This document shows positions 10,423 through 49,012 of a stretch of 62,920 nucleotides of DNA, piece by piece. The position numbers and the translations under genes are program-made. Position 1 is the first letter of the stretch, and each line of letters starts with the position of its first letter. Below the pieces are notes generated by a model. The model saw nothing but the letters and a program-made list of their open reading frames with translations, was not told the origin of the DNA and made no database searches. Source of the stretch: a virus (Duplodnaviria > Caudoviricetes); IMG/VR virus record IMGVR_UViG_3300037808_000193, positions 1 through 62,920 of that record. One strand, written 5' to 3'.

Positions 10423-11397
10423 TCAGGCCACGGCCGAGGTGAAGAAGTAACCAAGGTCACTCGCAATCACCTTCATGTCGTATGCCATCTCACCCTCAAC
10501 ACGATCTGCCTTGAGGTTCTGCTGACGGAACCGGCTGATGCGGGTACCGAAGGCAGATGCCCCGAGGAGACCACCCCAGGTGAACACGTAGCCAGCTGAG
10601 GGCTGCATGATGCCTGGGTTGGGGTTGGCGTAGCACAGGAGTGCGGACTTGCCGACGATGAACGCCATCGAGGCAGTAGCACCCTCGTTGGCAGTGTTCT
10701 TGATGGCGTCGGCAACGACGATCCGGCTCACTCCGAAGAGACCAGCCAGAAGATCCTCGGTCATCAGGCCACGCTGGGTGTACTTGATGCGGTCGAGGAT
10801 GTCTGCATGGTTCCGAAGGGTGGCAAAGACCTCATGGCCCATGACCAGCACGTTGGGCTTGTAGCCCGTGTTCTGCTGGACTCGGGTGAGGCCGTTCTGC
10901 ACATCCTGAATCGGATCGCTGGACACGTTGTCCCACTGAAGGAACTGGTCTCCAGTCGGGCCAGACGAAACGCCGGTCATGTCCTTCTCCCACACAGAGG
11001 TGGTCATGAAGGTCGAGGTCCAGTCCAGGTCCCGCTTCAGCATGAGCTGCTGAGTCACGAACTGGGTGGCCTCACGATCGACGTTGATCGGGTTGTCAGC
11101 ATTGGCACGAGTCTGGTCATCCACGTCCTTGTGCAGGGCGAAGACATCGCAGTAGTACGTGCCAGTGGTGAGGGTGTAACCCGAACCAGCAGACTCAGTG
11201 CCTGGGGCACGGAGAGCTGCATCGGTCCGATACCACTGGTCCTTGTCATAGCTGAAGTACTGATCAGCCTGCTTCTGGACGGTGATACGGGGGAACACCC
11301 GATCGGCGATGAAGTTGCGACCTTGGGTGTACGCAACAGAGATGGTGGTGAGCGGCCTACTGACGTGAACGTCAGATGGCGTAGGGGACGAAGGCAT
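10423..11397 (-). CDS. Major capsid protein (HK97 fold)
   Basis: PTPSDVHV.RPLTTISVAY, FIADRVFP, KPNVLVMG, DLGYFFTSAVA. Confidence 0.92.
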   Translation of the reverse strand: MPSSPTPSDVHVSRPLTTISVAYTQGRNFIADRVFPRITVQKQADQYFSYDKDQWYRTDAALRAPGTESAGSGYTLTTGTYYCDVFALHKDVDDQTRANADNPINVDREATQFVTQQLMLKRDLDWTSTFMTTSVWEKDMTGVSSGPTGDQFLQWDNVSSDPIQDVQNGLTRVQQNTGYKPNVLVMGHEVFATLRNHADILDRIKYTQRGLMTEDLLAGLFGVSRIVVADAIKNTANEGATASMAFIVGKSALLCYANPNPGIMQPSAGYVFTWGGLLGASAFGTRISRFRQQNLKADRVEGEMAYDMKVIASDLGYFFTSAVA

Positions 11398-11785: not shown

Positions 11786-12703
11786 TCAGTTCACCTCCGA
11801 GGCGACGTGCTGTGCGTACAGGCTAGGGTTCTCGACGATGATCTCGTCGTATGCCTGGGCGTAGGAGATCTCACGCTCTTCGGACCGACGCTTGGCCAGA
11901 CCTTCCAGCTGATCTTCTGCCTTGGACACTTCTCCACCGAAGGAGTCGTTGCCCACGGTGCTGAAGAGCTTGCCAGCGAGGACCTGCTCATCGGCTGCCT
12001 TGAGAACCGTGTCGATGGCTTCCCACTCAGCAGTGTCGAGCTTGGCCTGTGCCGACTTCACGACGGGACCGAACTGATCGGCCTCCACCGGGAGGTTGGC
12101 GTAGTCCGAGCGGACCTTGCTGATGGCTTCCTTGATCAGTTGCTGGTCGTGCATGGCCTTGGTGATCTTCACTGCCTCAGCAGCATCACTCTTGGCCTTG
12201 CTCAGCTCCTGCTTCTGGGCCTCGAAAGCAGCTCGGACCGCAGGATTGGACTTCATGATCTTCTCCAGATCATCCGTCTCTTCCACGGTCTCTTCGTCAC
12301 TCTCTTCGGAATCTTCGTAGTACTCAGACTTGCTCACAGCGTCACGAGCATCACGGTCAGCAAGGAGATCGGCGACGCTCTTTTCGAGAGTGTCCTGATC
12401 CTCTTCGTCCGTAGTCAACTCATCGATGACGTCGAGAGCTGTGTCCAAGTCCTTCTGAAGGTCCTCGAAGTGAGCGAACTGCTCCTCCGTAAGGCCATCC
12501 AGATTGATCTGGGGCATAGCTTCCTCCTGGTCGTTGCTGGTGATCGTATCGCCAGTTTCGTCCTCACTTGAGAACTTCTCCAGCTCTTCGGTGTCATCTC
12601 TACTCTTGCTGAGAATGACATTTGCATCCTGGTTGGCACCAGCACCAACCAGAGAAACCTCGTCGTACTCCATTTCGGAGAGTTCTGTTTGTTCGTCAGG
12701 CAT
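11786..12703 (-). CDS. Capsid scaffolding protein
   Basis: EVSLVGAGAN N-terminus, acidic coiled coil, ISYAQAY...NPSLY C-terminus; many hydrophobic-x-K sites. Confidence 0.8.
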   Translation of the reverse strand: MPDEQTELSEMEYDEVSLVGAGANQDANVILSKSRDDTEELEKFSSEDETGDTITSNDQEEAMPQINLDGLTEEQFAHFEDLQKDLDTALDVIDELTTDEEDQDTLEKSVADLLADRDARDAVSKSEYYEDSEESDEETVEETDDLEKIMKSNPAVRAAFEAQKQELSKAKSDAAEAVKITKAMHDQQLIKEAISKVRSDYANLPVEADQFGPVVKSAQAKLDTAEWEAIDTVLKAADEQVLAGKLFSTVGNDSFGGEVSKAEDQLEGLAKRRSEEREISYAQAYDEIIVENPSLYAQHVASEVN

Positions 12704-14069
12704 TCTTCAAGCCTCCAGATGGGTCGATATCAAACCCACCAGTTCCCTTGCGAGCAGCATCAATCAAAGCCTGCCCTGTCTTGCCTTCGCCCACAGCCCT
12801 CATAACACTTGGCTTCCACCGAACTTGGCCAGACCTGGTGACCTCACCAAGACGCACTCCATCTTTGGTGCTGATCTTCCTGCCCTCAACCTTTGTTCCA
12901 CCAGGAATAGCGACTCTTCGCACCTTTCCACCAGGCATCCGGTACGAAACAGTGCTTGTCCCAGCAGTGCCACCACCACGTTTGATATTGCCACCCTTGC
13001 CACCGCTAGCGGCCCTTCCACCACCTGAACCCGAGGTGAACCGACCATCAGAGCCATGGTTCATGTTGTACTTACGAAGCAGGACATGGGCCTTGCCCAG
13101 TGCAATCTTCTTCTGACGTCTGGTCACTTCATCATCTTCCGGTACGGTACTGACATGAACGTCAGACGGGGTGGGCGAGGTCTTCCTGAGACTGTTGCGC
13201 TGGCGAAGCTGAATCACCCTGAGAGCAGATGACGCCTTGTGAGGGAGTGATCCGATCTTCTTCTTGCGTGGCTTCTTCCTCCCACCACCAGCGTTGATCT
13301 TCTTGGCATGACGGACCGATGAGCGGGACAGGTGAGTGCTTGCCGGTGAGGAAGAGCTGAAGCCCCGGCTCACACCCTTGGGCAAGGCCTTGTTGACGTT
13401 GAGCTTCATCTGACGATCATGCATGGAATTCGAGATGCGAGCCGCCTTCTCTTTACTCATTCCCTTCCTCCGAAGTGCTTCGTAGATGTGGGGGTACTTG
13501 ATCGAAGGACCATGATCCCCTCCAGGATTCTTTCGACCTTTGCGCTTGCCACTGATGGTGATGGAATCACCTCTGACGTTTCCACGTCCATCAACTGTGA
13601 AGCCTGAATCGTCAGACTTGGCCACCTTGGCGGCCACGGTGGGAGGAGCTTGCCGACGACGGCCCTTCCCATGGACGGAGAACATCTTGTATCGGCCACT
13701 CTTCACGCCCTTCCAGACCGAATCGTCGTGGACCTTGTACCCCACCCACCAGCCTTCAGGCACAGTCCCTTCCTTGATTCCAAGAGCGGCCATCTTCTCC
13801 TTGGTGAAGACCACACTCTCGACCAGAGTGGCAACACCCTTCTGAACATGCTCAACGCCTCCGTCACGGCTCTTCAGTACGAAGTCATAGGCGGCACGCT
13901 CAAGATCGTCCTCATGCCGGATGTAGTCACCATCATGATCTACAAGGAGCTTGCCTTCCTTGTCCTTGTAGACCTGAGCCCAGCCAAAGACAAGCTGGCG
14001 GTCATCGTTGGTCTTGATGATCTCACAGTCAGTCACTTCATCACCATCTTGTTCTTGTGTAGTTCCCAC
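12696..14069 (-). CDS. XkdF-like prohead protease with long basic C-terminal extension
   Basis: RQLVFGWA, VDHDGD, LERAAYDFV, EH...LVESVVFT, GWWVGYKV.D..VW..VKSG.Y.MFSVHG. Confidence 0.85.
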   Translation of the reverse strand: MGTTQEQDGDEVTDCEIIKTNDDRQLVFGWAQVYKDKEGKLLVDHDGDYIRHEDDLERAAYDFVLKSRDGGVEHVQKGVATLVESVVFTKEKMAALGIKEGTVPEGWWVGYKVHDDSVWKGVKSGRYKMFSVHGKGRRRQAPPTVAAKVAKSDDSGFTVDGRGNVRGDSITISGKRKGRKNPGGDHGPSIKYPHIYEALRRKGMSKEKAARISNSMHDRQMKLNVNKALPKGVSRGFSSSSPASTHLSRSSVRHAKKINAGGGRKKPRKKKIGSLPHKASSALRVIQLRQRNSLRKTSPTPSDVHVSTVPEDDEVTRRQKKIALGKAHVLLRKYNMNHGSDGRFTSGSGGGRAASGGKGGNIKRGGGTAGTSTVSYRMPGGKVRRVAIPGGTKVEGRKISTKDGVRLGEVTRSGQVRWKPSVMRAVGEGKTGQALIDAARKGTGGFDIDPSGGLKNA

Positions 14070-14374
14070 CCTCTGGACAGGTGACGGAACCGCTCATCCC
14101 TGGTCATAGTAGGCACTGCACCCTCGGTCTCCGTGATCTTCAGGAATCTGAGAGCCACGATCCACACAGCCAGTGGGTCTGAATGATCGATGAGTACAGG
14201 GGTTCCTTCATATCTGATAAGGGACCCTTGACAGTCAGAGAACACGTTCCTGAAGCCTCGATCGCCCTCAATCTTGCCAGGACGACGGAAGAGAACCTCG
14301 ACCGGGGTGTCATAGGGAGCCTTCTTCCACCGACCCTTGAAGGCGAACCTCTGGGGGTGTGGAGGCCGAGCCAT
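14033..14374 (-). CDS. Hypothetical protein
   Basis: ORF coupled between neighbouring genes. Confidence 0.5.
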   Translation of the reverse strand: MARPPHPQRFAFKGRWKKAPYDTPVEVLFRRPGKIEGDRGFRNVFSDCQGSLIRYEGTPVLIDHSDPLAVWIVALRFLKITETEGAVPTMTRDERFRHLSRGWELHKNKMVMK

Positions 14375-14547
14375 CAGGCCAACATCCTGTGCTCATCACA
14401 CAGATAGCGGACTACATCGTTCCCAGTGTGCTGTCCCTTCACCACGTACCTCCTGGCAGGTGCCCTACACAGCGGTGAGCGGCAATCGAAGAAGGACCCG
14501 TCGTCATGGACGGGAAAGTCACCGAATAGCTCCGTGGAGGCTGACAT
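14374..14547 (-). CDS. Small putative zinc-binding protein
   Basis: CRSPLC...LCDEH; start refined to MSASTEL to limit overlap with MuF. Confidence 0.45.
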   Translation of the reverse strand: MSASTELFGDFPVHDDGSFFDCRSPLCRAPARRYVVKGQHTGNDVVRYLCDEHRMLA

Positions 14548-16798
14548 CCACAGCTTCTCGATCTGCTGTGAATCTGATTCGGTCGACGTTGAAGTACTCC
14601 CGTCGTCGTGTGAATCGAGGCTCTTCTGGTCGCTGTCCCTCTGGGAGGTAGTCGATGGTGACGTGTGGTGTCCATCGGAAGTTCTTGGAGCACTCGATTC
14701 CATGCTTCTCCAGTCCAGCAACCAGAACTCGTCGGATCTCACTCAGGTTCCTAACCACGGGCTTCCGCCACCATGGAATCATCCCCTCTGAGTTGGGGCC
14801 AGGCTCGAATGTCCCGTAGTCCTGCTGAAGGAAGCCGAACGATGGTCCGAAGAGCATCCCGATTGCTTCCATCACCGACTCAATGTTCTTGCGGTCTTCT
14901 TCACTCAGTGTCGAGGCATCGTTGGTGAGAAACGCCAAGGTGATGTGATGATCACCAGGCTCTGTGCCACCTTCAACAGCGATCTGCTGAGACAGGCTCT
15001 CGGGAATGGGCACTGAGATCATGGCCCCACCATGGCTGGCCTTGTCCTCTTTGGTGATCGTCACCTTCAGAGCGTCTCGAACTTCCTTCCAGAATCCCAC
15101 GTCGTCCTTCTCCAGAGCAGCAGGGTTGTCACGCATCCAGCGGTTGATCACCTTCACAGCATCAGCAATGGACTTGCTCAGGGTGTTGGTGCTCTTGGTC
15201 CCGTTCCAAGCCACGTCCTCAGTCATCAGGAACTTGTCGAACCCACGAATGCTGGTGATGCCGGGGAGCAAGCTGTCACCGAACTTCGCCACGTAGTCAG
15301 AACCTGACATGAACGGTGGGTCGATGCTGCCCTGGCTGGAATTGAGGAACTTCTGAGCTACCCGAGCGGTCTCACCAGGACTTGGGGTGTAGCCGTACCT
15401 GGCCCAGACGTAGGCACCGTTGAAGTTGCCACCAGATGAAGCATTAACCTCCATGGTGTGGAAGCCAGACCGAGCATAGGAATCCTCCCACTCAGCCATC
15501 ATCTTGGTTCCCGCTCCTCTGCCCTGCAGCTCGGAGTTGACCTCGAAGAACTCGTTGACCACTACACCATCGTTTGGCCGAAGGGTTCGAGTGAACGAAC
15601 CAGCTTGACCACCATCCTGGTAGTAGAGCGTGCCTTCCACTGAGATCTCACTGTCGCCCCAGTCGTAGACAGAATCGACCTCAGCACGGATGACCTCACC
15701 ATTGGCAGTCTTGATCTCCCCCTCGAAGATGGCTGCAGCTTGAGCTTCAAGCTCCTCCTGCTCCAAGTTGCTGGCGGACCTAGACATGTCAGCAACCAAC
15801 AATCCACCACCTGGGCCACTAGTGAAACGACCATCAGACCCGTGGTAGGGGTTGAACTTACTAATGGTGACAAGCTCATTCTCAGTGAATGACTTAGCCA
15901 CATCGGTCGCCCTCACCAGACCAACAGCGCAACGGCAGTTTGGGTGGGCTGGGGGTCCTGGGTAGTTGACACTGTTGGTCGGTGAGGTGAAATCCATCCC
16001 GATAGCCCTGGTTTGCAGGTTCATCGGGGCACAGATCTTGCAGAGCCGCTCGTCAGCACCAGTGTGCCACTGCTGGACCAGCTCATTGGCGTCGATGTAC
16101 CCGTCGTTGATTGCCTGCTCCCAGGCGGCTCTTCGGCCGATGTTGGCAGCAGTGTGCAACTCAGTACGGGCAATGGTCTTGGCTCGACGGACAAGGTGAC
16201 GCTCAGCTGCAGCATCAGCCACCTTTCTGGCTACAGCAGCGGGATCACCGGCCCTGATCCTGGCGTTGTACAGGTTGGTGACAGCTTGAGCATCCCGAGG
16301 TGTGAGACCAATCATCGGCTTGATGATCTTGGCAGTCTCAGCGGTCGTAACGCCTTGGGTCCACGACGTTTCCATGGCCCTGGTGATTGCATCACGTGTG
16401 TTTGAAGAGATCCCGATCACCGTAAGAGCTGCATGGTTCCTGAGCTGAGTCACCACACGAGGGTCGTAGCCATCGAAGTGAGCTGACATTCTCACTGGTG
16501 TCTGGCGGAACTGCCGATCAGCCCAGGCATCGAAGTCCTTGGCAGTCTGCTGACCAGCACGAGCTTCCACCTCGGTGCTCACATTGCCAAGGAGCACCTG
16601 AAACCTGTTGAGCGGTGTTGCACCGATGTTGTTCTCGATGGAATCGAGGAAGGCACCGAGATCCTGACCTCTGAACGAGTTCTTCCATGCATTGATGAGG
16701 TTGAGGAATCCCTCGATGATGCGTCGTTCAGGGCGAGAGGGTCGGTTGGCAGGTGTTGGCCTCGTGCCCAGAACCGTGGGCTTCCGACGAAGAGGCAT
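14519..16798 (-). CDS. MuF (phage Mu F-like) minor head protein fused to GNAT acetyltransferase and 2H phosphoesterase domains
   Basis: RAKTIARTE, CKIC, PPAHPNCRC (MuF); ELQGRGAGT and GAYVWARYGY (GNAT); HITL and PHVTI (two HxT motifs). Confidence 0.88.
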   Translation of the reverse strand: MPLRRKPTVLGTRPTPANRPSRPERRIIEGFLNLINAWKNSFRGQDLGAFLDSIENNIGATPLNRFQVLLGNVSTEVEARAGQQTAKDFDAWADRQFRQTPVRMSAHFDGYDPRVVTQLRNHAALTVIGISSNTRDAITRAMETSWTQGVTTAETAKIIKPMIGLTPRDAQAVTNLYNARIRAGDPAAVARKVADAAAERHLVRRAKTIARTELHTAANIGRRAAWEQAINDGYIDANELVQQWHTGADERLCKICAPMNLQTRAIGMDFTSPTNSVNYPGPPAHPNCRCAVGLVRATDVAKSFTENELVTISKFNPYHGSDGRFTSGPGGGLLVADMSRSASNLEQEELEAQAAAIFEGEIKTANGEVIRAEVDSVYDWGDSEISVEGTLYYQDGGQAGSFTRTLRPNDGVVVNEFFEVNSELQGRGAGTKMMAEWEDSYARSGFHTMEVNASSGGNFNGAYVWARYGYTPSPGETARVAQKFLNSSQGSIDPPFMSGSDYVAKFGDSLLPGITSIRGFDKFLMTEDVAWNGTKSTNTLSKSIADAVKVINRWMRDNPAALEKDDVGFWKEVRDALKVTITKEDKASHGGAMISVPIPESLSQQIAVEGGTEPGDHHITLAFLTNDASTLSEEDRKNIESVMEAIGMLFGPSFGFLQQDYGTFEPGPNSEGMIPWWRKPVVRNLSEIRRVLVAGLEKHGIECSKNFRWTPHVTIDYLPEGQRPEEPRFTRRREYFNVDRIRFTADREAVDVSLHGAIR

Positions 16799-18420
16799 TA
16801 CTCCCCCAGGGTGCTGAAGTCACCAGTGATAATGGCCTTCTTCACTTTGTCCCGACGAGCTTGAGCTTGGGATGCACTTTGCTGGCGGGATGCCTGCTCA
16901 AAGTCCTCTTTCCTTCGTCGGTCAGTGTCTTCCCGATCTTCCTTACGGTGACCTTCGGACGCCTCAGAATCCTCCCCACGTCTACGATCCGTATCGTCAC
17001 GATCCATGAGGTCTCGTACATTGGTGTCGTCCTGAGCTTCCTGTTGTTGAAGCAACGGCGATGTCGGCTCTGCGTCTAGGTCCTTCTCTGGGAGCCCAGC
17101 AATCTCTCGAAGCCATGCTTCCAGAGTGTCATCGGGGAACAGAGGCATTCCGATCCCCGAGAGCGTCTGCATGTAGGCCGCCATCTTCTGGAGGTCTGGT
17201 GACTCGATGTCACCATGCATGATCTTGGGTGGGTCTTCAACGTTGATGCCGTTGAGCCGTAGAAGGCGGGGAACTGCCTGTCGGTTGAGGATGGCAGCAA
17301 TGCTGTCCAGCCATGCACCAGTAGCCACGGCAAACAGGTCGGTCTTGTCATCGTGGAGGGCAAACGAGCCAGTGCTGTTGTGACCAACGAGGAGAAAGTC
17401 AGCAAGAGCAGCCATTGTGATCCGCTGGTCGTACCTCTGGATGATCGAGTTGGTGTCGAACTGACGAGCACCACCAGTGGACATCAGGGAGAGGTCGAAC
17501 ATCTTGTTGCCGTGTTCGTCATAGGCGAGAGGGAACATCACGCCCTCTTGCTCATCCCTACGGATGTTGACGATGATCTCCTGCATTGCGTTGAAGACGG
17601 CCTTCTTGTCAGCGGAGGCGTTGGCGTCGAAGAACTCGGGTGGTGCATAGCCCACCGGCAGACCTGCAAGGTCACGTTCGATGCCTGTGGCCTCGATCTC
17701 CTCGATCCTCTTCTTGAAGTACCAGGGCCGATAGGCACCCCGAAGCAGTGACCGCCCCTCTGGGTTGTTCTTGTGGCTCATCGTCCTGAACAGCAGAGCC
17801 TTCTCCATCGGGATGAAGGACATCTTGTAGAACGGAGGAGCTTGCTGCCACGCACCGAGGATCTCGCCACTTTCGGCATCAATGGCCCACGAGATGATGG
17901 TGTCCTGAGAACGGATGGAGAGACGGTGCCATCCGATCTTGCCGTCCTTGAAGCGGCTGTCGGGCTTGGAGTCGATCCTGCCCACCTCGTTCACGGAGAG
18001 GGATTGCTCCCCTTCACGCTTCTTGTAGACGATCTCGTGGAAGCTGTAGCCGAAGACCAGCATGGACAACACCTCGGAGATGAAGTCCTCCCAGGAATCG
18101 GCCATGTCCTGCATACATTCTTCGATGAACTCAGCGGCCTCTTCGGACCCATCACCCTCACCAGGGTCAACGTGCCACTCAGCCTGACGAATCAGCATGT
18201 CGATGACATGGAGCATCCCGCTCACCACGGGATCGTTGGTGCTCATCTCCCGGTAGACCTCGACGGCCCTTTGGCCCATCAGGGTGACCAGGAACTCCTC
18301 TGAGATGATGCCACCGAACCGCTTCAGGCCTGTCTGGCCCAGCTCAGTCATCTCGTCGTAGTTGAAGTCTTCGGTTCTAACACCAGCTTCGTGGAAGAGG
18401 TTTGCACCTGTGTCCGTCAT
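16798..18420 (-). CDS. Portal protein
   Basis: VYREM..DPVV, LVFGYSFHEIVY, NNPEGRSLLR.AY.PW, ERDLAGLPV. Confidence 0.92.
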   Translation of the reverse strand: MTDTGANLFHEAGVRTEDFNYDEMTELGQTGLKRFGGIISEEFLVTLMGQRAVEVYREMSTNDPVVSGMLHVIDMLIRQAEWHVDPGEGDGSEEAAEFIEECMQDMADSWEDFISEVLSMLVFGYSFHEIVYKKREGEQSLSVNEVGRIDSKPDSRFKDGKIGWHRLSIRSQDTIISWAIDAESGEILGAWQQAPPFYKMSFIPMEKALLFRTMSHKNNPEGRSLLRGAYRPWYFKKRIEEIEATGIERDLAGLPVGYAPPEFFDANASADKKAVFNAMQEIIVNIRRDEQEGVMFPLAYDEHGNKMFDLSLMSTGGARQFDTNSIIQRYDQRITMAALADFLLVGHNSTGSFALHDDKTDLFAVATGAWLDSIAAILNRQAVPRLLRLNGINVEDPPKIMHGDIESPDLQKMAAYMQTLSGIGMPLFPDDTLEAWLREIAGLPEKDLDAEPTSPLLQQQEAQDDTNVRDLMDRDDTDRRRGEDSEASEGHRKEDREDTDRRRKEDFEQASRQQSASQAQARRDKVKKAIITGDFSTLGE

Positions 18421-18585: not shown

Positions 18586-19995
18586 CTACATGTTGGACCA
18601 GTAGTTGGCCTTCCCCAGAGACTCCGGCATGGTGATCATGATCTGACGTTGACGACCCGCCCAGCACATAGCACCAGCCACCACACTGTCAGGTGGGTGA
18701 GCCTTGCCGAACAGAGCGTCGATCGACACGTACTTGTGCTCAGCAAAGGCGAAGTCGATCATGGGTGAGGTCATCTCATCACTCTCGATTGCAGTGATGT
18801 AGTTGCTGAACAGATCAGTTCTACGTCGACCCGTCATGACAATCGGGGTCACCTTCGGCACGTCCAGGTAGTCATGGACCACATTGCCGACACCTGTTGC
18901 ATCGTGAACCAGCGGTGAGTCGAACTTCTGGCACCTACGGTTCACAGCCTCCACCATCATCGGCCATGGTCTACGGCCCATCCTTGACCAGGCAACACGC
19001 TTCCACGGTGTGCAGTCAGTGCGGAACGTATCGATGATGGTCCAGTCCCTCTCCTTGGCCCAGTCCACCCCGGTGACGTAGTAGCCGTGAGGATCAGGCT
19101 TCTCGAAGGTGAACTCCTGGCCTTCCTCGCCATCCACTCGTTTCCTCTTCGGATCACCGAACCCGAACAGGTGGTTCACCGAATCACTGTCGATGGCCCT
19201 TCCCTCGAAGCTTGGCTCCTGAAGGTCGTACTCGGTCTCCCACATGTGGCGGGACACCTCAGACTTCTTCCTCTGCACAGCGTCAATGGGCAGCCACCCG
19301 TGAGGCTCCATCGTCTCCCGATAGCACCATTCGTAGACAGGCCAGCCTTTCTCGTGCGCCCTGTTGAGAATGACGCTCATCGTCTTGTCTGGGTACTGGT
19401 GAGTAGATGACATCACAATCTGTGACGTGAGAGTGCTCGTACTCATCGGCTGGCCCAGAGACGATTCGAGGATGTCGTACTCCATCTCATCAATCTCATC
19501 GAGGCGGAGACGTTGGGGGTGAGGACCACGGACTGACTTCTGGGATGCCATCAGTGCTCGGACGTATCCACCATTGATCAGCTTGGTGTCGAACTTGGTG
19601 GGCTCCTTGGCCAGCATCCCCACTGGAGCTAGCGGTGCATCCCACATCTCACCCATCACCTCGACCACACGGAGGGACTGGAAGGACGATCCACCCAGAA
19701 CAGTCACCCCAGCTCTCAGGAGAGTGCTCTCAGCCATCGCTAGAGCAGCCAGCGTCTGGCTCTTGCCCCCGAACCCACGAGAGGCCTTCCAGACCGTTAC
19801 GGGGTATCTGGCAAAGAATGCATCAGCAAAGGCCTCGAACGGCGCCCTGTGGTTTGGGCACACCCTCTTGCGTGGGATCTCCATCCCGAATAGGGCCTGC
19901 ATGGCAAACCACAGCTCGTCATCAGTCTGTGGAGGACGCCGCATGACCAACGATGGTGTGGTCGGTCCTGTCCCCTGAGTTGCAAGGTCAGTCAT
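18586..19995 (-). CDS. terL: Terminase large subunit
   Basis: SRGFGGKS Walker A, LRLDEIDE Walker B, GVDWAKERD, DATGVG and PPDSVVA nuclease motifs. Confidence 0.93.
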   Translation of the reverse strand: MTDLATQGTGPTTPSLVMRRPPQTDDELWFAMQALFGMEIPRKRVCPNHRAPFEAFADAFFARYPVTVWKASRGFGGKSQTLAALAMAESTLLRAGVTVLGGSSFQSLRVVEVMGEMWDAPLAPVGMLAKEPTKFDTKLINGGYVRALMASQKSVRGPHPQRLRLDEIDEMEYDILESSLGQPMSTSTLTSQIVMSSTHQYPDKTMSVILNRAHEKGWPVYEWCYRETMEPHGWLPIDAVQRKKSEVSRHMWETEYDLQEPSFEGRAIDSDSVNHLFGFGDPKRKRVDGEEGQEFTFEKPDPHGYYVTGVDWAKERDWTIIDTFRTDCTPWKRVAWSRMGRRPWPMMVEAVNRRCQKFDSPLVHDATGVGNVVHDYLDVPKVTPIVMTGRRRTDLFSNYITAIESDEMTSPMIDFAFAEHKYVSIDALFGKAHPPDSVVAGAMCWAGRQRQIMITMPESLGKANYWSNM

Positions 19996-29763: not shown

Positions 29764-30188
29764 CTGCGATACACGTACCCTTCAAGGACGATGCCATTGG
29801 CAAACTCCACCACGTAAAGGGCGTCCTTCCCCTCCTTGGCAGACTCACGAAAGTGCTTGGCAAGTTCATCAGCACCCAACGTGTGACTCTTGTTAGCCAT
29901 CTTGAACTCACCTACCTCATCGGCATTTGAGGCATCACCCTTGATCTTTCCAGCACCAGAATTTGGGTGAGGTCTCATGTTGTAGACCTTGGCGGTCGGT
30001 GCCTCGTTCTCCCGGCCCTTCACCTGAGGGGTCTTCTCCTTGTACGGGAAGAGATCGTCCCGATCCACTGACCGACAGTCCTTGCACACCTCGAACCGAA
30101 CGTTGGTGTGGTTGATGCACCGACACTGGCGGATCACCTTGTCACAATCACTACACCTGGTGATCCCATGACCAAGCAAGCTACTCAC
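29760..30188 (-). CDS. Hjc-type resolvase/endonuclease with N-terminal zinc finger
   Basis: CSDC...CRC...CKDC; G...E...PNSGAG.IKGD...EFK. Confidence 0.75.
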   Translation of the reverse strand: MSSLLGHGITRCSDCDKVIRQCRCINHTNVRFEVCKDCRSVDRDDLFPYKEKTPQVKGRENEAPTAKVYNMRPHPNSGAGKIKGDASNADEVGEFKMANKSHTLGADELAKHFRESAKEGKDALYVVEFANGIVLEGYVYRR

Positions 30189-31128
30189 TCAGCTTCTCCC
30201 AAATTCCATCGAGCAACTCTTGGTCGTCTGACATGGCGGCCTTGAAGGCGTCCTTGCCTCTGACCTCAGTGTCCCCAAACTTGTACGTGCCCTTCTTCGG
30301 CTGGGTGATGATCCCTTCGAGCATGGCTGTATCGAAGACGAACCCGAGATCATCCACACCATCCCCGAACATGAAGGTGAACTTCACCTCCTGGTGCGGC
30401 CTGGACAACTTGCTCTTCTCAAGGTGGGCTCGGATCACCTGCCCGATCACCCTCTTGTCTTCCTTCACCTTGGACGACTTGAACATGGCCACCCTCATCG
30501 AGGAGTAGAAGGGCAGAGCCTTCCCGCCTGGCGTAGTTACTGGTGAACCAAAGGTGATTCCGACATTCATCCTCGTCTGATTGATGAAGAGGAGTGCCGT
30601 GTTGTTGTTGTACGTGGTGATCTTACGAAGGGCCTGTGACATGAGAGCCGCCAACCTGGCTGGTTGCACTGGATCTCGGGAAGACTTCTCGGCTTCTGTC
30701 TTCGGGAGAGTGGCAGCTACTGAGTCCCAGACGACCAGGCCTACTCCTGCTCGGACGAGGGCGACTGTTGCGTCGACGGCTTCTTCACCAGTCTCAGGGT
30801 GCATGACGATGAGCTTCTCGGTGTCGACACCAAGGGCGTCAGCCCAGCTCGGGTCGAATGCATTCTCCGTGTCGATGATGGCGGCCGTGAGGTCGTTGTC
30901 TTGGGCAACAGCACATGCACTGAGGCCAACGTATGACTTGAGCGTTGAGAAGTCTCCGAAGATCTCCGTCGCCCTCCCCATCGGAAGCCCGCCACCGAGA
31001 AGATAATCAACAGGAGTAACACCAGTAGGTAGGTAATCGACAACAAGAGAAGGATCTGAACCAAGTTTGATGACATCGCTACCTAGCTCCTTGTTGATCA
31101 CGTTCATCAGCTCTTTGGCTGTCGTCAT
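30181..31128 (-). CDS. recA: RecA/UvsX recombinase
   Basis: PTG...D.LLGGGLP.GR.TEIFGDFSTLKS, IDTENAFD, VVWDSVAA, FINQ, TPGGKALPFYSS.R. Confidence 0.95.
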   Translation of the reverse strand: MTTAKELMNVINKELGSDVIKLGSDPSLVVDYLPTGVTPVDYLLGGGLPMGRATEIFGDFSTLKSYVGLSACAVAQDNDLTAAIIDTENAFDPSWADALGVDTEKLIVMHPETGEEAVDATVALVRAGVGLVVWDSVAATLPKTEAEKSSRDPVQPARLAALMSQALRKITTYNNNTALLFINQTRMNVGITFGSPVTTPGGKALPFYSSMRVAMFKSSKVKEDKRVIGQVIRAHLEKSKLSRPHQEVKFTFMFGDGVDDLGFVFDTAMLEGIITQPKKGTYKFGDTEVRGKDAFKAAMSDDQELLDGIWEKLSE

Positions 31129-31660
31129 GTGATGTGGTCACTTTCATCGTTACCTTCCCACGGCCAGACTTGGCCGGGGACATATCTACAATCTTCTGGG
31201 TGAGTTCGTCGTCAGACAAGCGGAACATCTCACGAACCATCTTCAAGTCACCGAGGTCAAGCTCACAATCGGGGTCTTCATCACCACGGTTCATGTCATA
31301 ACCCAAGTCAGCGATCGTCTCGACTATCCGCACCCACAAGTGCTTCTTCTCTGGTGCCAGAGGGACACCTGCATCGACGCCTGACATGGCGTACTTCTGC
31401 ATGGCAGACCTCACCCTCTCTGCATTACGAGAGTCCTTGGCTCGTGACTTCACTGTCACCCGGCCACCCTCCATCGACATGCGAGTTTCGATGTTGGTCT
31501 GAGTCACAGCCAGAGACTCGAACAACTCCTGTGGGAAGTTGACGATGACCTCGTAGCCGAGAGTCTCTGGATCTTCCGAGATGGTTCCGGTCAGAATCGA
31601 CATGCACATCATGAAGAGTGAGTAGTCGCCCTGTCCGAGCCTCTGCCAGTCCTCAGCCAT
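31079..31660 (-). CDS. Hypothetical protein
   Basis: Coupled between dnaE and recA. Confidence 0.6.
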   Translation of the reverse strand: MAEDWQRLGQGDYSLFMMCMSILTGTISEDPETLGYEVIVNFPQELFESLAVTQTNIETRMSMEGGRVTVKSRAKDSRNAERVRSAMQKYAMSGVDAGVPLAPEKKHLWVRIVETIADLGYDMNRGDEDPDCELDLGDLKMVREMFRLSDDELTQKIVDMSPAKSGRGKVTMKVTTSHDDSQRADERDQQGAR

Positions 31661-34326
31661 CAGAGCCCCAGAGACCCGAGTGCCCCAGCATCTTGCAGCT
31701 TGAGTAGCACTCCGTTGAATTCACCATTGGCTGCATAATTCTTCCCTCCTGATACAGCTCTACTATCCGTATTGTTTATCAGATCATCAATGGTGTCGAA
31801 AGGTGCGTTGGTGAATATCTCACTAGCCGCCTTGATGCCAATCCCATCAATCGAGGACAGGCCCTTTCGGATTCCCCTCCTCTTCTTGTCGATGGTCCAC
31901 ACGTCACCAGAGATGTTGACATCGGGTGGCAGGATTCTGATCCCCAGCCTCCTCGCCTCCCTGACGTAGAGCTTCTCCTTCGGAGTGCCAGCTGTCGTCT
32001 CCAGCACTGCCGTCATGTACTCCAGCGGGTGGTGGGTCTTGAGGTAGGCAGCCTGGTAGCCCATCAATCCGTAGGCAGTGGCGTGAGCTTCGTTGAACCC
32101 GTAGTCGGCAAACCCTTTCATCTGATCCCAAACCCAATCTGCCTCTCGGCTACTCATGCCAGCAGCAACACAGTGAGCCTTGACAGCGCCACTGAACTCT
32201 CGGAACACACCATGGGACATCGTGAGCTGAGATCCCGACGCCTTCACTGCATCGAGGAACTTGTTCATCAGCTCGTAGCCCATGCCAAGATCCCGCAGGA
32301 TGTCCATGACTTGCTCCTGGTAGAGCACCACGCCCTGAGTCGTCTTCAGCGCCTTCTCGATACAGGGGTGAGGGTAGTCAGGGGGTGGGACACGCTTGAA
32401 TCGACGGTCGATGAACGTGTCGGTCTGGCCAGTCTTCATAGCTGCGGGCCTGAAGAGGGCCATGGCGTCGATGCAATCCTTCACCGTCCTCGGCTTGAGC
32501 TTCTTCGTTCCCCAAGCGTTGGCCTTGCCATCGAACTGGAAGATGCCGTTGTTCGGCTCCACCTTGCGGAGTGCCTTGAACGTCTCCTGGTCCTTGAGTG
32601 GAATCCACCCGAGACCATCGAGTGGGTCACGGTCGATCATCTCCAAGCACCGACGCATGGTGGTGAGTGTCCTCAGCCCGAGGAGGTCGAGCTTCACGAA
32701 GCCCAGCGCCTCCACTTCCTTCATCTCATACTGGGTGACGGTGTTCTTGCTCGATGGGATGAGCATGGTCGGCACGTAGTCAGAGATCGGTAGCCCTGGT
32801 GGCTCGATGATGAACCCGGCAGCGTGCGACCCTGGTGCCTTCGAGATGTCCAGGCCACCCAGACTCCTGATGATCAGCTGCTCGTCTTCCGGCAGATCGG
32901 AGATGGTGTCGACCCATCCGTACTTGGCCTTGAAGTCTTCTGGACCCATGTCCCGACGTTTGCGGGAGATGTACTGCACGAACAGTGACCCCCGGTCATA
33001 GTCATCGACACCCATGGAGTTGTAAGTGCCAATCTGACAGATGGTGTACTTGTCACTCAGGTAGTCAACGATGTCCTGACGGCGAGTGTCCTCTACGTCT
33101 ATGTCGATATCTGGTGGCTTGGTCCTGTCTTCGGTCATGAACCGATCGAACCCGACCTTCCATTCGATGGGGTCGATGTTGGTGATGTCGAGCATGTAGC
33201 AGACGAGTGACCCGTTGGCCGATCCTCGAATGTTGAGGAGGATGCCCTGCTTCCTGGCCCAGCGGCACACCTTGGCCACGAAGAGCAGGTAGTCAGCAAA
33301 CCCCGTCTTCTCGAACACCTCGATCTCGTGCTTGAGCCTCTTCATGTACTTCGACGGGATGCTGTCTGGCCACCACTCTGCAGCTGCCTTCCACAACAGG
33401 TTCTCCATCGACCTCTGCGGGTTCTTGGCCACGTGTGGCACTTGGAACCTGTAGTTGTCGATAGCTGGTATGGCCATCTTGTTCAGGTCGATGATGTCTC
33501 TGAAGGACGCCAGAGCTGCGTTGTAGACCCGCTGGGTCGTCCTGGTCTCGGCGTAGTGGTCCTTGATCCACTTCTGCTTGCACAGGTGATAGGCGTCACC
33601 AGGGAAGGCCGCATCGTCGTCTGGGTCCAGGCCATGGATGACCATCCTCTTCATTGCGTCGTGCAACGGGACCTGATCGAGGTGGCAGTAGTGAGAGTCG
33701 TTGGTGATGACCACTGGGATGCCGGTCTTGTTGGCGATCTCCCAAAGTGCCTCGGTGATGCTGACATCATCAGATGAACCATCCGGCTGGATGGTGTTGT
33801 GCATCTGAGTCTCGATGTAGGTGTGAGGGAACCTCTGGGCAAACCACTGGGCGATGCCTATGGCTCTCTGCTCACCATGGTTCAGCAGAGTCTGGATCAG
33901 AATCCCGAAGAAGCAACCTGTGGTGATAAGGACATCAGCACCACAACGCTGGGCAAGAATGTCCAGGTCGTCGAAGTCGATCCTTGGCTTCCGGTGGAAG
34001 GCTGATCTTTGGTGAGAGCGGGACGATAGCTCGACCAATCCCTTGTACCCGTCGAGGTTCAGAGCCAACACACCCATGTGGTAACGCTTGGCGTCCTTGT
34101 CGGCCTTGTCGTGGACGAGGTAGAACTCCTCGCCAGGGAAGGGCGCAAGGTTGTGTTTCTTGCTGGCCTTGTATAGCTCGATCGTTCCCGACATGTTCCC
34201 ATGGTCGGTGAGAGCTATCCCCGGCTGATTGTTACGTGCAGCAGTCTCGACCATCTCAGTCACTGAGCCCATGGCGTCTAGCGATGAGTAGTGGGAGTGT
34301 GCGTGCAGATGAAAGAACGAACCCAT
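31660..34326 (-). CDS. dnaE: Family C DNA polymerase (DnaE alpha; PHP, polymerase and HhH domains, no C-terminal OB)
   Basis: HLHAHSHYS.LD, TDHG, NDSHY, RGSANGS, PDIDID, HAAG, KLDLLGL, YQEQVM, YGFNEAHA. Confidence 0.96.
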   Translation of the reverse strand: MGSFFHLHAHSHYSSLDAMGSVTEMVETAARNNQPGIALTDHGNMSGTIELYKASKKHNLAPFPGEEFYLVHDKADKDAKRYHMGVLALNLDGYKGLVELSSRSHQRSAFHRKPRIDFDDLDILAQRCGADVLITTGCFFGILIQTLLNHGEQRAIGIAQWFAQRFPHTYIETQMHNTIQPDGSSDDVSITEALWEIANKTGIPVVITNDSHYCHLDQVPLHDAMKRMVIHGLDPDDDAAFPGDAYHLCKQKWIKDHYAETRTTQRVYNAALASFRDIIDLNKMAIPAIDNYRFQVPHVAKNPQRSMENLLWKAAAEWWPDSIPSKYMKRLKHEIEVFEKTGFADYLLFVAKVCRWARKQGILLNIRGSANGSLVCYMLDITNIDPIEWKVGFDRFMTEDRTKPPDIDIDVEDTRRQDIVDYLSDKYTICQIGTYNSMGVDDYDRGSLFVQYISRKRRDMGPEDFKAKYGWVDTISDLPEDEQLIIRSLGGLDISKAPGSHAAGFIIEPPGLPISDYVPTMLIPSSKNTVTQYEMKEVEALGFVKLDLLGLRTLTTMRRCLEMIDRDPLDGLGWIPLKDQETFKALRKVEPNNGIFQFDGKANAWGTKKLKPRTVKDCIDAMALFRPAAMKTGQTDTFIDRRFKRVPPPDYPHPCIEKALKTTQGVVLYQEQVMDILRDLGMGYELMNKFLDAVKASGSQLTMSHGVFREFSGAVKAHCVAAGMSSREADWVWDQMKGFADYGFNEAHATAYGLMGYQAAYLKTHHPLEYMTAVLETTAGTPKEKLYVREARRLGIRILPPDVNISGDVWTIDKKRRGIRKGLSSIDGIGIKAASEIFTNAPFDTIDDLINNTDSRAVSGGKNYAANGEFNGVLLKLQDAGALGSLGL

Positions 34327-43688: not shown

Positions 43689-44552
43689 TCATGTGTATCG
43701 GTCCGCAAGAGCACGAAGCTTCTTGGGCTTCATCTCCCCAGGGTCCTTGGCTTTGACCCCATCCTTGCGTCGACCGAACATCTTCCCGTCTACCCGACGT
43801 AGGTTCAGAACGAACTGCTCGTGCTTCAGCCTGTCGTAGATAGCCGCCTCAGCCTCTTGCCCAGCTCTGTCGTTGTCGAGCATGAGGATGATGTCCGTAG
43901 CACCCATCCTCCGCAGCTCACCGACCTGATAGTCACTGATCCTCGAACCCAGGATGGCTACAGCACTCATGCCGAACTGGTCGAGCTTGATTGCGTCGAG
44001 TGACCCCTCACAGATGAAGATCGGCATGTCATACGACCTCCAAGCCCCGAACAGGATCTCGCTGATCTTCGAGCCCTTGGGGTACTTGTACCGGACCCTC
44101 ACGTCATGGTCGAGATACCGACGGATGATTCCCCTCAGCCTTCCCATGTGGTTCCTGTACGGGATGGTTACCGCATTCCTCATGGGGTCGTAGCCGAGAT
44201 CCCACTTCTCCACGATGTTGTTGTCGAACCCACGCTCTCCCCAGTAGGGATGCATCACGCTCTGGCGGTACTTCCTCAGCACGTGCTCAGGTAGAGCTTC
44301 TTCAGGCTCCAGAGACAACCGTTCAAGGATGCTCTTGCCCGACAACATCGAGGTTGCCTCTGGAGCCACACCTATAACGCCACCAAGGTGACCGCCCTTG
44401 CCACAAGCGTGGCAGTAGTACAGCCCCTTCTCGACGTTCACCCTCATAGAGGGATTCGTGTCCTCATGGAAGATGCAGAGGCAATCCCACTCATCACCAG
44501 ACTTAGATCTGATGTCGAGATTACTCTCCGCCCACTGCTCATATTCTCTCAT
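43689..44552 (-). CDS. dnaG: DnaG-like primase (CHC2 zinc finger and TOPRIM)
   Basis: LCIFHEDTNPS...YCHAC; ICEGSLDA; LDNDRAG; KDPGE. Confidence 0.9.
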   Translation of the reverse strand: MREYEQWAESNLDIRSKSGDEWDCLCIFHEDTNPSMRVNVEKGLYYCHACGKGGHLGGVIGVAPEATSMLSGKSILERLSLEPEEALPEHVLRKYRQSVMHPYWGERGFDNNIVEKWDLGYDPMRNAVTIPYRNHMGRLRGIIRRYLDHDVRVRYKYPKGSKISEILFGAWRSYDMPIFICEGSLDAIKLDQFGMSAVAILGSRISDYQVGELRRMGATDIILMLDNDRAGQEAEAAIYDRLKHEQFVLNLRRVDGKMFGRRKDGVKAKDPGEMKPKKLRALADRYT

Positions 44553-47252: not shown

Positions 47253-47748
47253 GGTCGATCAGCTGCATAGCGACGGCTAAAGCCTGCAATTGCACATAGG
47301 CAAACGTTCGGTACACGTCCTTATGTCCCTGGACGTGGATCGGCTGATGACCAGACCCAGAGAGTACAGCGTCCAACCCTGGAGATACATCCCCAGCGTG
47401 ACAACAGTCGAACCCGATCCACCACACGTTGGTCTCAGTCACGTCGATGACACCAGCAAAGGTGAGGCCGCCATGGCAATACACCTCATCCTCAATATAG
47501 GGGTAGCCAACTCCATATAGAGGATCACCTTCGGTGACACCTGCATACCCACACCAGTGACCAGTCACGTCATGGCGGAGAGCAAAGCACTTCATCGTCT
47601 TGCCCTGGTAGGTCATGTTCCAGAAGGCATAGTCAGGCTCGGTCATCCATGGGCCATCTGCCCAGGTGCTCTTGTCGATGTGCCTGTCTTGCCCCGAAAC
47701 TAGCCCGCTGATGGTGTCAGCCAGCTGCTCAATCGTCTCGGTCATCAT
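47158..47748 (-). CDS. Conserved phage hypothetical protein
   Basis: GHWCGY.GV...HGGLTF...WWIGFDCCHAGD...YRT..YV. Confidence 0.75.
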   Translation of the reverse strand: MMTETIEQLADTISGLVSGQDRHIDKSTWADGPWMTEPDYAFWNMTYQGKTMKCFALRHDVTGHWCGYAGVTEGDPLYGVGYPYIEDEVYCHGGLTFAGVIDVTETNVWWIGFDCCHAGDVSPGLDAVLSGSGHQPIHVQGHKDVYRTFAYVQLQALAVAMQLIDLDFKGEKSGRAATSGVDDDGGEERVWYSRSM

Positions 47749-49012
47749 CTTTGTCCTTCATGTCCTGAGCTTGGTCATACGTGATCTCGCTGAACTCACC
47801 ATCGTTGGGTAGGAACTTCGTCCAGAAGGTGATCCCATCACGTCCGTGCCGATACTTTGCCAGGTTCACCCGGTGAACAGAGCGGGAATACTGCTGCAGC
47901 ATGATCACGGCGTCAGCGTCTTGGCCGATCGAGTCTCCGTAGGCCAGATTCTCTACTCCTGGGATGTCACGCTTTCCTGCCCCGGCCCTGTTCAACTGAG
48001 CAGCTGTGACGATGGGGACCTGATAGCTCATCGCCAGAGTCTTCAGTTCACCCGAGAGTTTCTGCACTGCCCTCCAGTCGTCACCGATCATGGACATCAG
48101 CGTCATGTAGTCGATGAACACCACATCGGGCTTGTTGCGCTCGATGAGGCTGGCGATCTCTAATGGACCTACCTGGCCTCGACCACGGTCAGAAACATGG
48201 AGCCTGCCTGGGTAGTGACCCGGCACCTTCTTGAGCCAATCCCTATATGTAGAGGGACCAACATGACCAGTGGTGAGTTCCTGACTAGTGAACTTCAGGT
48301 GACCCGCTGCCTTGTGCATCTGGTTGCTCATCACGGTGTGAGCCCTGACGAGAATCTGTTCTCGTGGTTGCTCCAACGAACAGAACTGCACTGCGTACCC
48401 GGCTTTGACGGAAGCGACTGCCATGTTGACGAGAGCCCAGGTCTTGCCTTGCCCGAGACGAGCACCGACCACCCAGAGGTGGCCTGGCATGGGTCCACCA
48501 GTCCTTGCGTCGAGCGTGTCGTATCCGGTGGGTGTACCCGATGCCCCGTGCTCTTTGATCCTGGCAGCGAGGCCTCTGATGTACCGATAGGCAGCATCGA
48601 AGTCGGCTATGGCGTCATGATCACCATCGGCTCCATCCAGCTCTGTTCTCAGCCCGACGATGCCGAGGTGAAGCTCACGCAGAACCTCATCGACCATGCC
48701 CCTGTCCTCGATGCCCTCTACACCCCGTTCAAGGAGCCGCTTGAGCACGAACTGGGAGTGCTGGGCATGGACCTCTTCTACTAGGGGCTTGGCCTCTCCT
48801 GCGTCGGTTCTCAGGATCTTGAAGTCTGGGAAGCGGGACTTGAAAGAGTTCTGGCCTGGAGACTTTGCGTACTTGGTGACGAACCTCTCAATCCACACCC
48901 ACTCTTTCTTGTGGATGTGGAAGTGGTTCGAGTTCACCCCATGCTTTGCTGCAGTCCGGTAGTCACGATGCTTGACCACATAGCTGATCAGCACCGATTC
49001 TGGATTCGCCAT
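47729..49012 (-). CDS. dnaB: DnaB-like replicative helicase
   Basis: PTGY..LD..TGG, GARLGQGKT, SLEQ, FIDY, AAQLNR, IGQDAD, KYRHG. Confidence 0.93.
   Translation of the reverse strand: MANPESVLISYVVKHRDYRTAAKHGVNSNHFHIHKKEWVWIERFVTKYAKSPGQNSFKSRFPDFKILRTDAGEAKPLVEEVHAQHSQFVLKRLLERGVEGIEDRGMVDEVLRELHLGIVGLRTELDGADGDHDAIADFDAAYRYIRGLAARIKEHGASGTPTGYDTLDARTGGPMPGHLWVVGARLGQGKTWALVNMAVASVKAGYAVQFCSLEQPREQILVRAHTVMSNQMHKAAGHLKFTSQELTTGHVGPSTYRDWLKKVPGHYPGRLHVSDRGRGQVGPLEIASLIERNKPDVVFIDYMTLMSMIGDDWRAVQKLSGELKTLAMSYQVPIVTAAQLNRAGAGKRDIPGVENLAYGDSIGQDADAVIMLQQYSRSVHRVNLAKYRHGRDGITFWTKFLPNDGEFSEITYDQAQDMKDKDDDRDD

Follow-up and report, generated by a model that had tools for sequence, protein, structure and literature searches.

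Gene and encoded protein

The window analysed is the whole of the IMG/VR virus record IMGVR_UViG_3300037808_000193 (62,920 bases), a tailed-phage sequence estimated to be 78% complete in which nearly all long open reading frames (ORFs) lie on the minus strand. The gene considered here (14519-16798, minus strand) codes for a protein in which a MuF head-morphogenesis domain is followed by a GNAT module and a 2H phosphoesterase domain, and is referred to below as the MuF-GNAT-2H gene. The product is probably a polyvalent head protein anchored by MuF, from a tailed phage of seawater that has not been cultured; its enzymes would be packaged and injected and would act on host signals or targets. The parts of the gene and of the 759-amino-acid (aa) protein are as follows.

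14519-16798, minus strand: MuF-GNAT-2H gene, 759 aa plus stop codon; the ATG overlaps the stop codon of the portal gene by one base
15911-16582, minus strand: MuF (SPP1 gp7-like) head-morphogenesis domain, aa 73-296, ending just past HPNCRC
15857-15910, minus strand: linker, aa 297-314, holding ATDVAKS and TISK (sites VAK/S and ISK/F), where the MuF proteins of relatives stop
15803-15856, minus strand: junction motif of type A, FNPYHGSDGRFTSGPGGG, aa 315-332, at the module boundary before GNAT
15068-15754, minus strand: GNAT module, aa 349-577, a GNAT fold with a helical insert to about aa 541, then a helical tail
15029-15067, minus strand: linker, aa 578-590, VTITKEDKASHGG, from the GNAT tail to 2H, holding ITK/E; low predicted local distance difference test (pLDDT) score at the start of the 2H model
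14522-15028, minus strand: 2H domain, LigT/cyclic phosphodiesterase (CPDase)-like, aa 591-759, with HxT at H618-T620 and H712-T714

A preliminary description of this DNA, made from the letters alone, had reported the ORF and a series of short strings within it, and all of these were recovered in their places: HPNCRC at aa 285-290, VAKS at 300-303, ISKF at 312-315, FNPYHGSDGRFTSG at 315-328, QGRGAG at 425-430, GAYVWARYGY at 461-470, LSKS at 540-543, ITKE at 581-584, HITL at 618-621 (nucleotides 14936-14947) and HVTI at 712-715 (nucleotides 14654-14665).

The stretch 14400-16900 was found in many seawater metagenome runs. Contigs of four other seawater runs (X5-X8) showed no differing letters and no gaps over this stretch. 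Single contigs bridge the MuF/GNAT joint (X5 record 2, X6 record 9, X7 record 13) and the GNAT/2H joint (X5 record 1, X6 record 6, X7 record 12), and a 373-aa protein in a public collection is 100% identical to aa 387-759. An origin of the fusion as an assembly artefact or frameshift was ruled out by these differenceless bridging contigs.

MuF domain, GNAT module and 2H domain

The MuF domain was recognised by Pfam (PF04233, 37.7 bits against a cut-off of 29.6, aa 149-292) and by phrog_3517 (E 4e-35, aa 73-296), and the gene stands beside the portal gene in the head-assembly operon, as expected of this family.

The two enzyme folds announced in the preliminary description were both present in AlphaFold2 models compared with known structures by Foldseek and against the PDB, LigT and Acb1 included. 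The GNAT part was modelled from an alignment of 20 sequences (A1) with a pLDDT of 89.4. Foldseek gave a probability of 1.00 and 83 matches at E <= 1e-3, acetyltransferases only, and VIA gave a best Z of 11.8 to human GCN5 (5trm_C; root-mean-square deviation (rmsd) 2.4 over 110 residues), with RimL, NatD and PAT within one Z unit of the best; all 50 VIA matches listed were acetyltransferases. As a single sequence the module stays below the Pfam cut-off (Acetyltransf_10, 16.5 bits against 23.6, E 0.008), which the homologues P0006, P0007, P0010 and P0011 do pass. Within the acetyl-CoA motif QGRGAG, G428 is invariant and G426 and G430 are conserved in at least 90% of the 20 aligned sequences; the pattern [QRK]xxGx[GAS] is kept in 155 of 179 GNAT copies from 93 proteins. 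The tail is also conserved among homologues, as a helical segment with the pattern NRWMR..P..LE.DD..FW. The family profile matched RimI best, although weakly (E 0.012), which fits the RimI-like placement of such modules in passages of Iyer et al. (PMC5512222). Toxin chains of the AtaT/KacT type were matched by the profile no better than other GNATs (E 0.26-0.5), and none was among the 50 VIA matches listed, a listing that does not speak against such a relationship. As modelled, the first module is a RimI/GCN5-like GNAT acyltransferase with the acetyl-CoA motif kept.

The 2H domain was modelled from 25 aligned sequences (A2) with a pLDDT of 91.3. In the VIA comparison, in which 67 chains reached Z >= 8, the highest Z was 17.7, to the 2',3'-cyclic phosphodiesterase 5h7e of D. 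radiodurans (rmsd 2.8, 159 aligned residues), followed by the LigT-like protein of T. thermophilus (1iuh, 16.9), E. coli LigT (5ldm, 15.1), Usb1 (14.5), AKAP18 (13.9), the 2',5'-phosphodiesterases of rotavirus and coronavirus (12.8), the phosphodiesterase of Burkholderia phage BCSR5 (9q2g, 10.4), Acb1 (7t26, 9.4, rmsd 3.7 over 130 residues) and the cGAMP phosphodiesterase of Penguinpox (8.9). A literature search for the BCSR5 structure 9q2g found no paper. The family profile gave E 2.4e-11 to 5h7e, a CPDase of the LigT type, and 0.29 to Acb1. The single sequence matched phrog_14859, 'RNA ligase', at E 1.7e-9 and the Pfam family 2_5_RNA_ligase2 below its cut-off (17.8 bits against 27, E 0.0036). 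Residues H618, T620 and H712 of the two HxT motifs are invariant in 25/25 aligned homologues and in 63/63 of the larger set described below, and the domain is apparently active as an enzyme.

The preliminary description had likened the domain to the anti-defence nuclease Acb1, an analogy that was not borne out in this specific form, as the domain is closer to LigT and the CPDases (Z 17.7) than to Acb1 (Z 9.4). Membership of the Acb1 family was rejected on these Z values, on the profile E values of 2.4e-11 and 0.29, and on the Pfam model of Acb1 (PF23474), which gave no match to the record at E <= 1; among the scanned 2H homologues, 3/63 matched Acb1 at E <= 1e-3. On the model, the domain is best described as a LigT/CPDase-like enzyme of the same superfamily as Acb1 and outside the Acb1 family.

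Homologues of the cargo modules

An exhaustive HMMER search with aa 335-759 yielded 996 proteins at E <= 1e-3, 79 of them at E <= 1e-10, and 150 were listed. Homologues of the GNAT part cover residues 15-243 of this query. A 2H domain is present in 67 of the 150 matches listed, and 63 of these were scanned, with the four longest (P0076, P0091, P0100, P0129) excluded. All 63 matched 2_5_RNA_ligase2 (E <= 1e-3). Sixteen of the 63 carry an XkdF prohead protease (Peptidase_S78_2) and three an HK97-type Peptidase_S78; portal families occur on nine (Portal_Mu on five, Phage_portal on three, Phage_portal_3 on one) and Phage_Mu_F on three, so that about half of the scanned homologues are fused to a prohead protease, a portal protein or MuF. 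This recurrent fusion supports packaging into the head. The proposal of a MuF head protein carrying GNAT and 2H as cargo held, with packaging favoured by the comparative evidence from 2H fusions to head-internal proteins.

Among cultured phages the 2H part matched 25 records, from 14 Arthrobacter phages, 10 Streptomyces phages and one record without annotation. The three that were examined all lie in head-module genes. Kovu gp20 and Shrooms gp18 of Arthrobacter phages, annotated 'RNA ligase' and 'aldolase class I', are 2H-XkdF fusions, with both Pfam domains confirmed, and are encoded directly after the MuF gene; gp12 of Streptomyces phage YDN12, a MuF protein of 1190 aa, matches 2H weakly. 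The same succession of domains, MuF-GNAT-2H, was seen in P0107 and in P0034, the latter with a weak match to MuF. Among full-length relatives P0002 is the nearest; its MuF part shows 61% identity, and its C-terminus is formed by an ADP-ribosyltransferase (ART) domain instead. GNAT modules of this kind were found alone, in proteins of about 330 aa, as well as next to ART domains, behind MuF and in giant proteins.

Nine copies of the GNAT module are present in the giant P0009 (4416 aa) and ten in the giant P0016 (7601 aa), and most of these copies keep the acetyl-CoA motif.

Close relatives of the phage

Relatives in IMG/VR were collected by the major capsid protein (MCP); the best 80 of 318 were fetched, and nine of these loci reach the MuF gene. 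MCP identity to the close relatives is 53-60%. In 7/9 loci the MuF protein is short and stands alone (336-339 aa in six, the one at L124 being cut by the contig end), and these stand-alone proteins end 7-10 residues past HP(N/H)CRC. Between MuF and the XkdF protease of the same seven loci lies a separate GNAT ORF of 626-876 aa with two to three leader motifs of type B (see below). The neighbours of the GNAT ORF in L134 are an ART gene (Pfam E 3e-10), which has the same leader, and a third cargo ORF. The presence of a short MuF protein together with a separate GNAT ORF in relatives suggests that in this phage the first cargo gene became fused to MuF.

Two to three separate cargo genes were seen between MuF and the protease in L134 (2556-7059, plus strand) and likewise in L097, L117, L122, L124, L152 and L157. 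One is an ART gene, one a GNAT gene and one has no family match, with the leader KHG.HDQ..HG.W near each start.

In the two other loci, L089 has a short MuF protein and no GNAT ORF, and L090 (3680-7135, plus strand) has a MuF protein of 1152 aa with an intein-like insert, after which there is a weak match to a HipA-like kinase. The L090 insert seems to be an intein with a Vsr/DUF559-type endonuclease, located exactly at the conserved HPxC motif.

Junction motif and prohead protease

The peptide FNPYHGSDGRFTSG is the start of a motif that occurs a second time in the window, in the ORF of the prohead protease.

12696-14069, minus strand: XkdF-type prohead protease ORF, 457 aa; Pfam PF14550 (E 4.5e-19) and PF23855 (DUF7218, E 1.9e-16)
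13017-13070, minus strand: second copy of the type A motif, YNMNHGSDGRFTSGSGGG, aa 334-351 of the protease ORF (E 4.8e-5 within the record)

These two are the only type A matches in the six frames of the window. They share 14/18 residues, whereas the DNA is identical at 76% of 62 nucleotides (repeat D1), which points to selection on the peptide and not to a recent duplication. The type A consensus is K-F-N-P-Y-H-G-S-D-G-R-F-T-S-G-x-G-G-G, in a broader form K-(F/Y)-N-x-x-H-G-S-D-G-R-F-T-S-G-x-G-G-G. At the ends of modules in homologues, five related types were found.

Motif type A: NPYHD..GRFT
Motif type B: KH...HDQ..HG
Motif type C: KGDYPGHPFRGNQ
Motif type D: FDP.QPRD..GRW
Motif type E: GH.GRPG..GG

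A census covered the window segment and 79 loci retrieved by means of the GNAT alignment (6718 ORFs in all), where the patterns gave 112 matches as compared with 3 in reversed sequences. Taking all proteins and ORFs together, 0/163 motifs fall inside recognised domain envelopes, even though envelopes account for 19.6% of the residues. A single type is used in 57/62 proteins with several motifs and in 30/36 loci, the six mixed loci being five of B plus C and one of B plus A. Successive motifs are spaced by a median of 272 aa, 83/148 ORFs have their first motif no further in than residue 80, and in L026 up to nine neighbouring ORFs each begin with the same type. In relatives, motifs of this class are confined to module boundaries and to positions close to the start of stand-alone cargo genes of the head operon. 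A short signal is thus shared by several head-operon proteins, namely by two ORFs of the window and by up to nine neighbouring ORFs in relatives. At the position of the linker aa 578-590, a full junction motif follows the GNAT tail in P0020, P0022, P0031 and P0053. As far as sequence comparison goes, FNPYHGSDGRFTSG is probably the real junction signal of the MuF-GNAT-2H protein. The motif may further represent a widespread class of head-cargo signal, by which the segment behind it, whether on MuF, on a portal protein or on the protease or encoded as a gene of its own, would enter the procapsid and might be released there; this wider reading is tentative.

Regarding the protease ORF, the protease domain is followed by DUF7218, a Lys/Arg-rich basic region, the string SPTPSDVHVS, the junction motif and a C-terminal module of about 100 aa, for which no family, PHROG or ESM Atlas match was found (Atlas query aa 330-457). 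The protease ORFs of relatives are only about 250 aa long. Residues D44, H74 and S131 of the XkdF domain are invariant in 19 aligned sequences, from which the protease is probably active.

The preliminary description had also placed processing by this protease at four Lys sites (VAK/S, ISK/F, LSK/S, ITK/E). The sites are present but no more frequent than chance allows, since the loose pattern (hydrophobic-x-K followed by S, F, Y, E, T, A or G) has 6 occurrences in the MuF-GNAT-2H protein, 11 in the scaffold-like ORF and 12 in the protease ORF. As evidence of cleavage they were discarded for holding too little information and because the last GNAT strand ends at LSK/S, within a confidently folded unit. 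Motifs of types A, B and C nearly always have a preceding Lys, which fits the ISK/F site without proving a cut. A predicted complex of the protease domain (aa 1-150) with MuF residues 288-350 scored 0.09 against a mark of 0.32, with controls not run, and says nothing either way.

Other features of the head operon and genome

The head operon on the minus strand has the order terminase, portal, MuF-GNAT-2H, 113-aa ORF, XkdF protease, scaffold-like ORF, 124-aa ORF and MCP. The genes other than the two listed above are the following.

18586-19995, minus strand: terminase large subunit, first in the order of the head operon
16798-18420, minus strand: Portal_Mu portal protein, directly upstream of the MuF gene (Pfam PF06074, E 1.3e-35)
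14033-14374, minus strand: 113-aa ORF between the MuF and protease genes, overlapping the start of the protease ORF by 37 nucleotides
11786-12703, minus strand: acidic scaffold-like ORF, after the protease ORF
Between the scaffold-like ORF and the MCP gene, minus strand: 124-aa ORF
10423-11397, minus strand: MCP

Searches of Pfam, PHROG and NCBIfam with the 113-aa ORF (14033-14374) gave no match, and no counterpart was found in the loci of relatives; it might encode an inhibitor of the cargo or an immunity protein, or perhaps be no gene at all. A terminator-like hairpin (14514-14497) lies directly past the MuF-GNAT-2H stop codon and is not taken as evidence, because the scan returned 2 sites as compared with 3.0 expected from shuffled sequences.

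The string SPTPSDVHVS occurs twice, at 13149-13178 (minus strand, aa 298-307 of the protease ORF) and at 11359-11388 (minus strand, aa 4-13 of the MCP), with 84% DNA identity over 31 nucleotides. Among relatives, 26/38 protease ORFs have a DVH(V/I)D tail after the XkdF domain, and MCP N-termini show (S/D/Q/A)VH(V/I). The strict pattern [ST][DE]VH was found in 22/80 MCP N-termini and 26/38 protease tails, and in both genes of one relative's locus in 0/37 cases; among the rows examined, the looser core VH(V/I) alone is common to protease tails and MCP N-termini. The string may be a protease site or a capsid-docking strand.

Replication genes on the minus strand code for a DnaE-type DNA polymerase III alpha subunit with PHP, polymerase and fingers regions (31660-34326), RecA (30181-31128), a DnaB-like helicase (47729-49012) and a DnaG-type primase (43689-44552). 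No tyrosine integrase was found in the record when searched for. An ORF of 1703 aa (50466-55577, minus strand) is without a Pfam match at E <= 1e-3, as is the 450-aa ORF that follows it, and neither carries the junction motif.

Proposed function and alternatives

In the proposed mechanism, MuF would bring GNAT-2H into the procapsid at low copy number, and at infection the GNAT and 2H enzymes would leave with the DNA and act ahead of phage gene expression. The most likely task of the 2H domain would be to hydrolyse a cyclic-phosphate or 2'-5'/3'-5' linked nucleotide signal, or an RNA end, arising from host defence, while the GNAT module would most likely acetylate a host protein or an aminoacyl or nucleotide target. 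The junction motif would act as an address and/or a processing signal for head cargo, and may be cut by the XkdF protease. The published model for 2H domains fused to MuF or portal proteins agrees with this mechanism in passages of two papers (PMC5512222, PMC9503650).

Several observations weigh against this mechanism. Fusion to head proteins indicates co-assembly at best and not ejection, and the substrate of GNAT or 2H cannot be read from the fold. Between GNAT and 2H there is no full motif, only 'KASHGG' where relatives have one, so that the two enzymes may stay joined. The XkdF protease family is paired with type A here and with type B in relatives, hence the type of motif is not set by the protease family. 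Up to 9-10 GNAT copies in one giant protein are odd for a simple enzyme with a single target, and the paper on Arthrobacter phages (PMC5513430) has no passage on virion proteomics, activity or expression data.

Three other explanations were weighed. In one of them, which we regard as unlikely, an early-delivered 2H domain would heal the 2',3'-cyclic phosphate ends of tRNAs and mRNAs cut by host anticodon nucleases or toxin RNases, so that translation survives. The closest solved relatives, by profile and by fold, are indeed RNA 2',3'-cyclic phosphodiesterases of the LigT/ThpR type (5h7e, E 2.4e-11 and Z 17.7; LigT, Z 15.1), and source annotations name phage homologues 'RNA ligase'; however, neither an RNA ligase (PF09414) nor RtcB (PF01139) was found in this record of estimated 78% completeness, a scan of 20 large ORFs revealed no RNA-repair enzyme, and according to passages of Iyer et al. 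(PMC5512222) RNA ligases never accompany the 2H domains of polyvalent proteins. A similarly improbable alternative gives the enzymes no role in the next host: they would work in the cell that makes them or within the head as it matures, on assembly intermediates or packaged nucleic acid for example, or would simply be co-expressed by virtue of the fusion. This would account for the 16/63 2H homologues that are fused to the N-terminus of the XkdF protease, a protein internal to the procapsid and usually degraded there, but the same 2H clade is also fused to portal proteins and MuF and sits with ART, kinase-like and other conflict-type domains, the cargo genes of relatives bear typical effector domains such as ART, and a folded domain of 20 kDa would be unlikely to exit a closed capsid except via the portal.

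The third explanation, a MuF polymorphic toxin of the type described by Jamet et al., in which the C-terminal domains would be antibacterial toxins of a lysogen and the 113-aa ORF (14033-14374) the immunity protein, is very unlikely. The toxin-type ADP-ribosyltransferase domain at the end of P0002 (61% identity over MuF) and the small ORF of no known family after the MuF gene would both suit it, but that ORF has no homologue in the loci of relatives, no tyrosine integrase was found in the record, the genome looks like that of a replication-competent phage of about 63-80 kb with DnaE, RecA, DnaB and primase, and the terms acetyltransferase and phosphoesterase have 0 occurrences in Jamet et al. 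(PMC5576092).

Enzymes delivered by the virion act before phage gene expression and are thus prime candidates for first-strike counter-defence. To our knowledge, such enzymes have been tested almost nowhere outside T4, P1 and N4. The fusion of MuF, GNAT and 2H alone confirms published ideas and does not change them; the gene is a clean and small example, with one anchor, two intact enzymes and independent assemblies in support, and belongs to a clade with cultivable relatives, the Arthrobacter and Streptomyces phages, in which the prediction is testable. If the motif were a cargo signal, the set of injected effectors of an uncultured phage could be read directly from its sequence, and for this phage would consist of GNAT-2H on MuF and the 100-aa module on the protease gene. 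Should the motif serve as an address or a cut site for cargo, 'polyvalent protein' would cease to be a mere description and would stand for a delivery system open to prediction, and the motif would provide a tool for loading chosen proteins into phage heads.

Comparison with known systems

As an enzyme, the 2H domain resembles the CPDases LigT and ThpR (5h7e, 1iuh, 5ldm) in fold (Z 15-17.7, rmsd 2.3-2.9 over 151-159 residues) and in both HxT motifs; it differs from them in sequence (15-20% identity) and in being fused to a phage head protein. Acb1 (7t26, PF23474) is likewise a phage enzyme of the 2H superfamily, but LigT, Usb1, AKAP18 and the viral 2',5'-phosphodiesterases are all clearly closer to the present domain, and the hidden Markov model of Acb1 gave no match. 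Acb1 itself occurs free, as an early protein, and is not known to be fused to a head protein.

In phage T4, the internal proteins and Alt carry a capsid-targeting sequence that is cut by the gp21 prohead protease, and are injected. The likeness is one of working, in that a short signal is shared by several head-internal proteins; sequence, protease family and lineage are unrelated, and in the present phage the signal also stands between the modules of one polypeptide, as a candidate cleavage site. The packaging of Alt is mentioned in a passage of Iyer et al. (PMC5512222).

The MuF polymorphic toxins, as presented in passages of Jamet et al. 2017 (PMC5576092), share the N-terminal MuF domain and a variable C-terminal enzymatic domain. 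They belong to temperate phages and are accompanied by immunity genes, whereas no integrase was found here and the two domains are not classical 'toxin' domains.

The closest published framework is that of the polyvalent proteins. In passages of Iyer et al. 2017 (PMC5512222), 2H domains fused to MuF or portal proteins and RimI-like GNATs in polyvalent proteins are described, and the injection of MuF- or portal-fused 2H domains, which would destroy (oligo)nucleotides of immune signalling, is proposed there and in passages of Iyer et al. 2022 (PMC9503650), the latter with the model of packaging and injection against nucleotide signalling. Polyvalent proteins have a MuF virion anchor, several effector domains after it and a late-gene context (PMC5512222, in passages); correspondingly, MuF, GNAT and 2H are found here in one polypeptide encoded between the portal and protease genes. 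In contrast, the passages of the two papers (PMC5512222, PMC9503650) mention neither the junction motif nor 2H-XkdF fusions nor the order MuF-GNAT-2H. The literature search on the motif and the 2H-XkdF fusions, which included the texts of PMC5512222 and PMC5576092, found no description; the supplements of Iyer et al. were not covered by it and may show the motif. Beyond those passages, the present analysis adds the fusions of 2H with prohead proteases, the comparison of fused and unfused cargo within one phage group, and the junction motif.

Among cultured phages, the nearest counterparts are Kovu gp20 and Shrooms gp18, which belong to the same 2H clade (26-30% identity) and are likewise encoded at the MuF gene, right after it. 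In these proteins the 2H domain is carried on the N-terminus of the protease, whereas in the phage described here it is carried on the C-terminus of MuF, and the protease instead has DUF7218 and a C-terminal module of its own.

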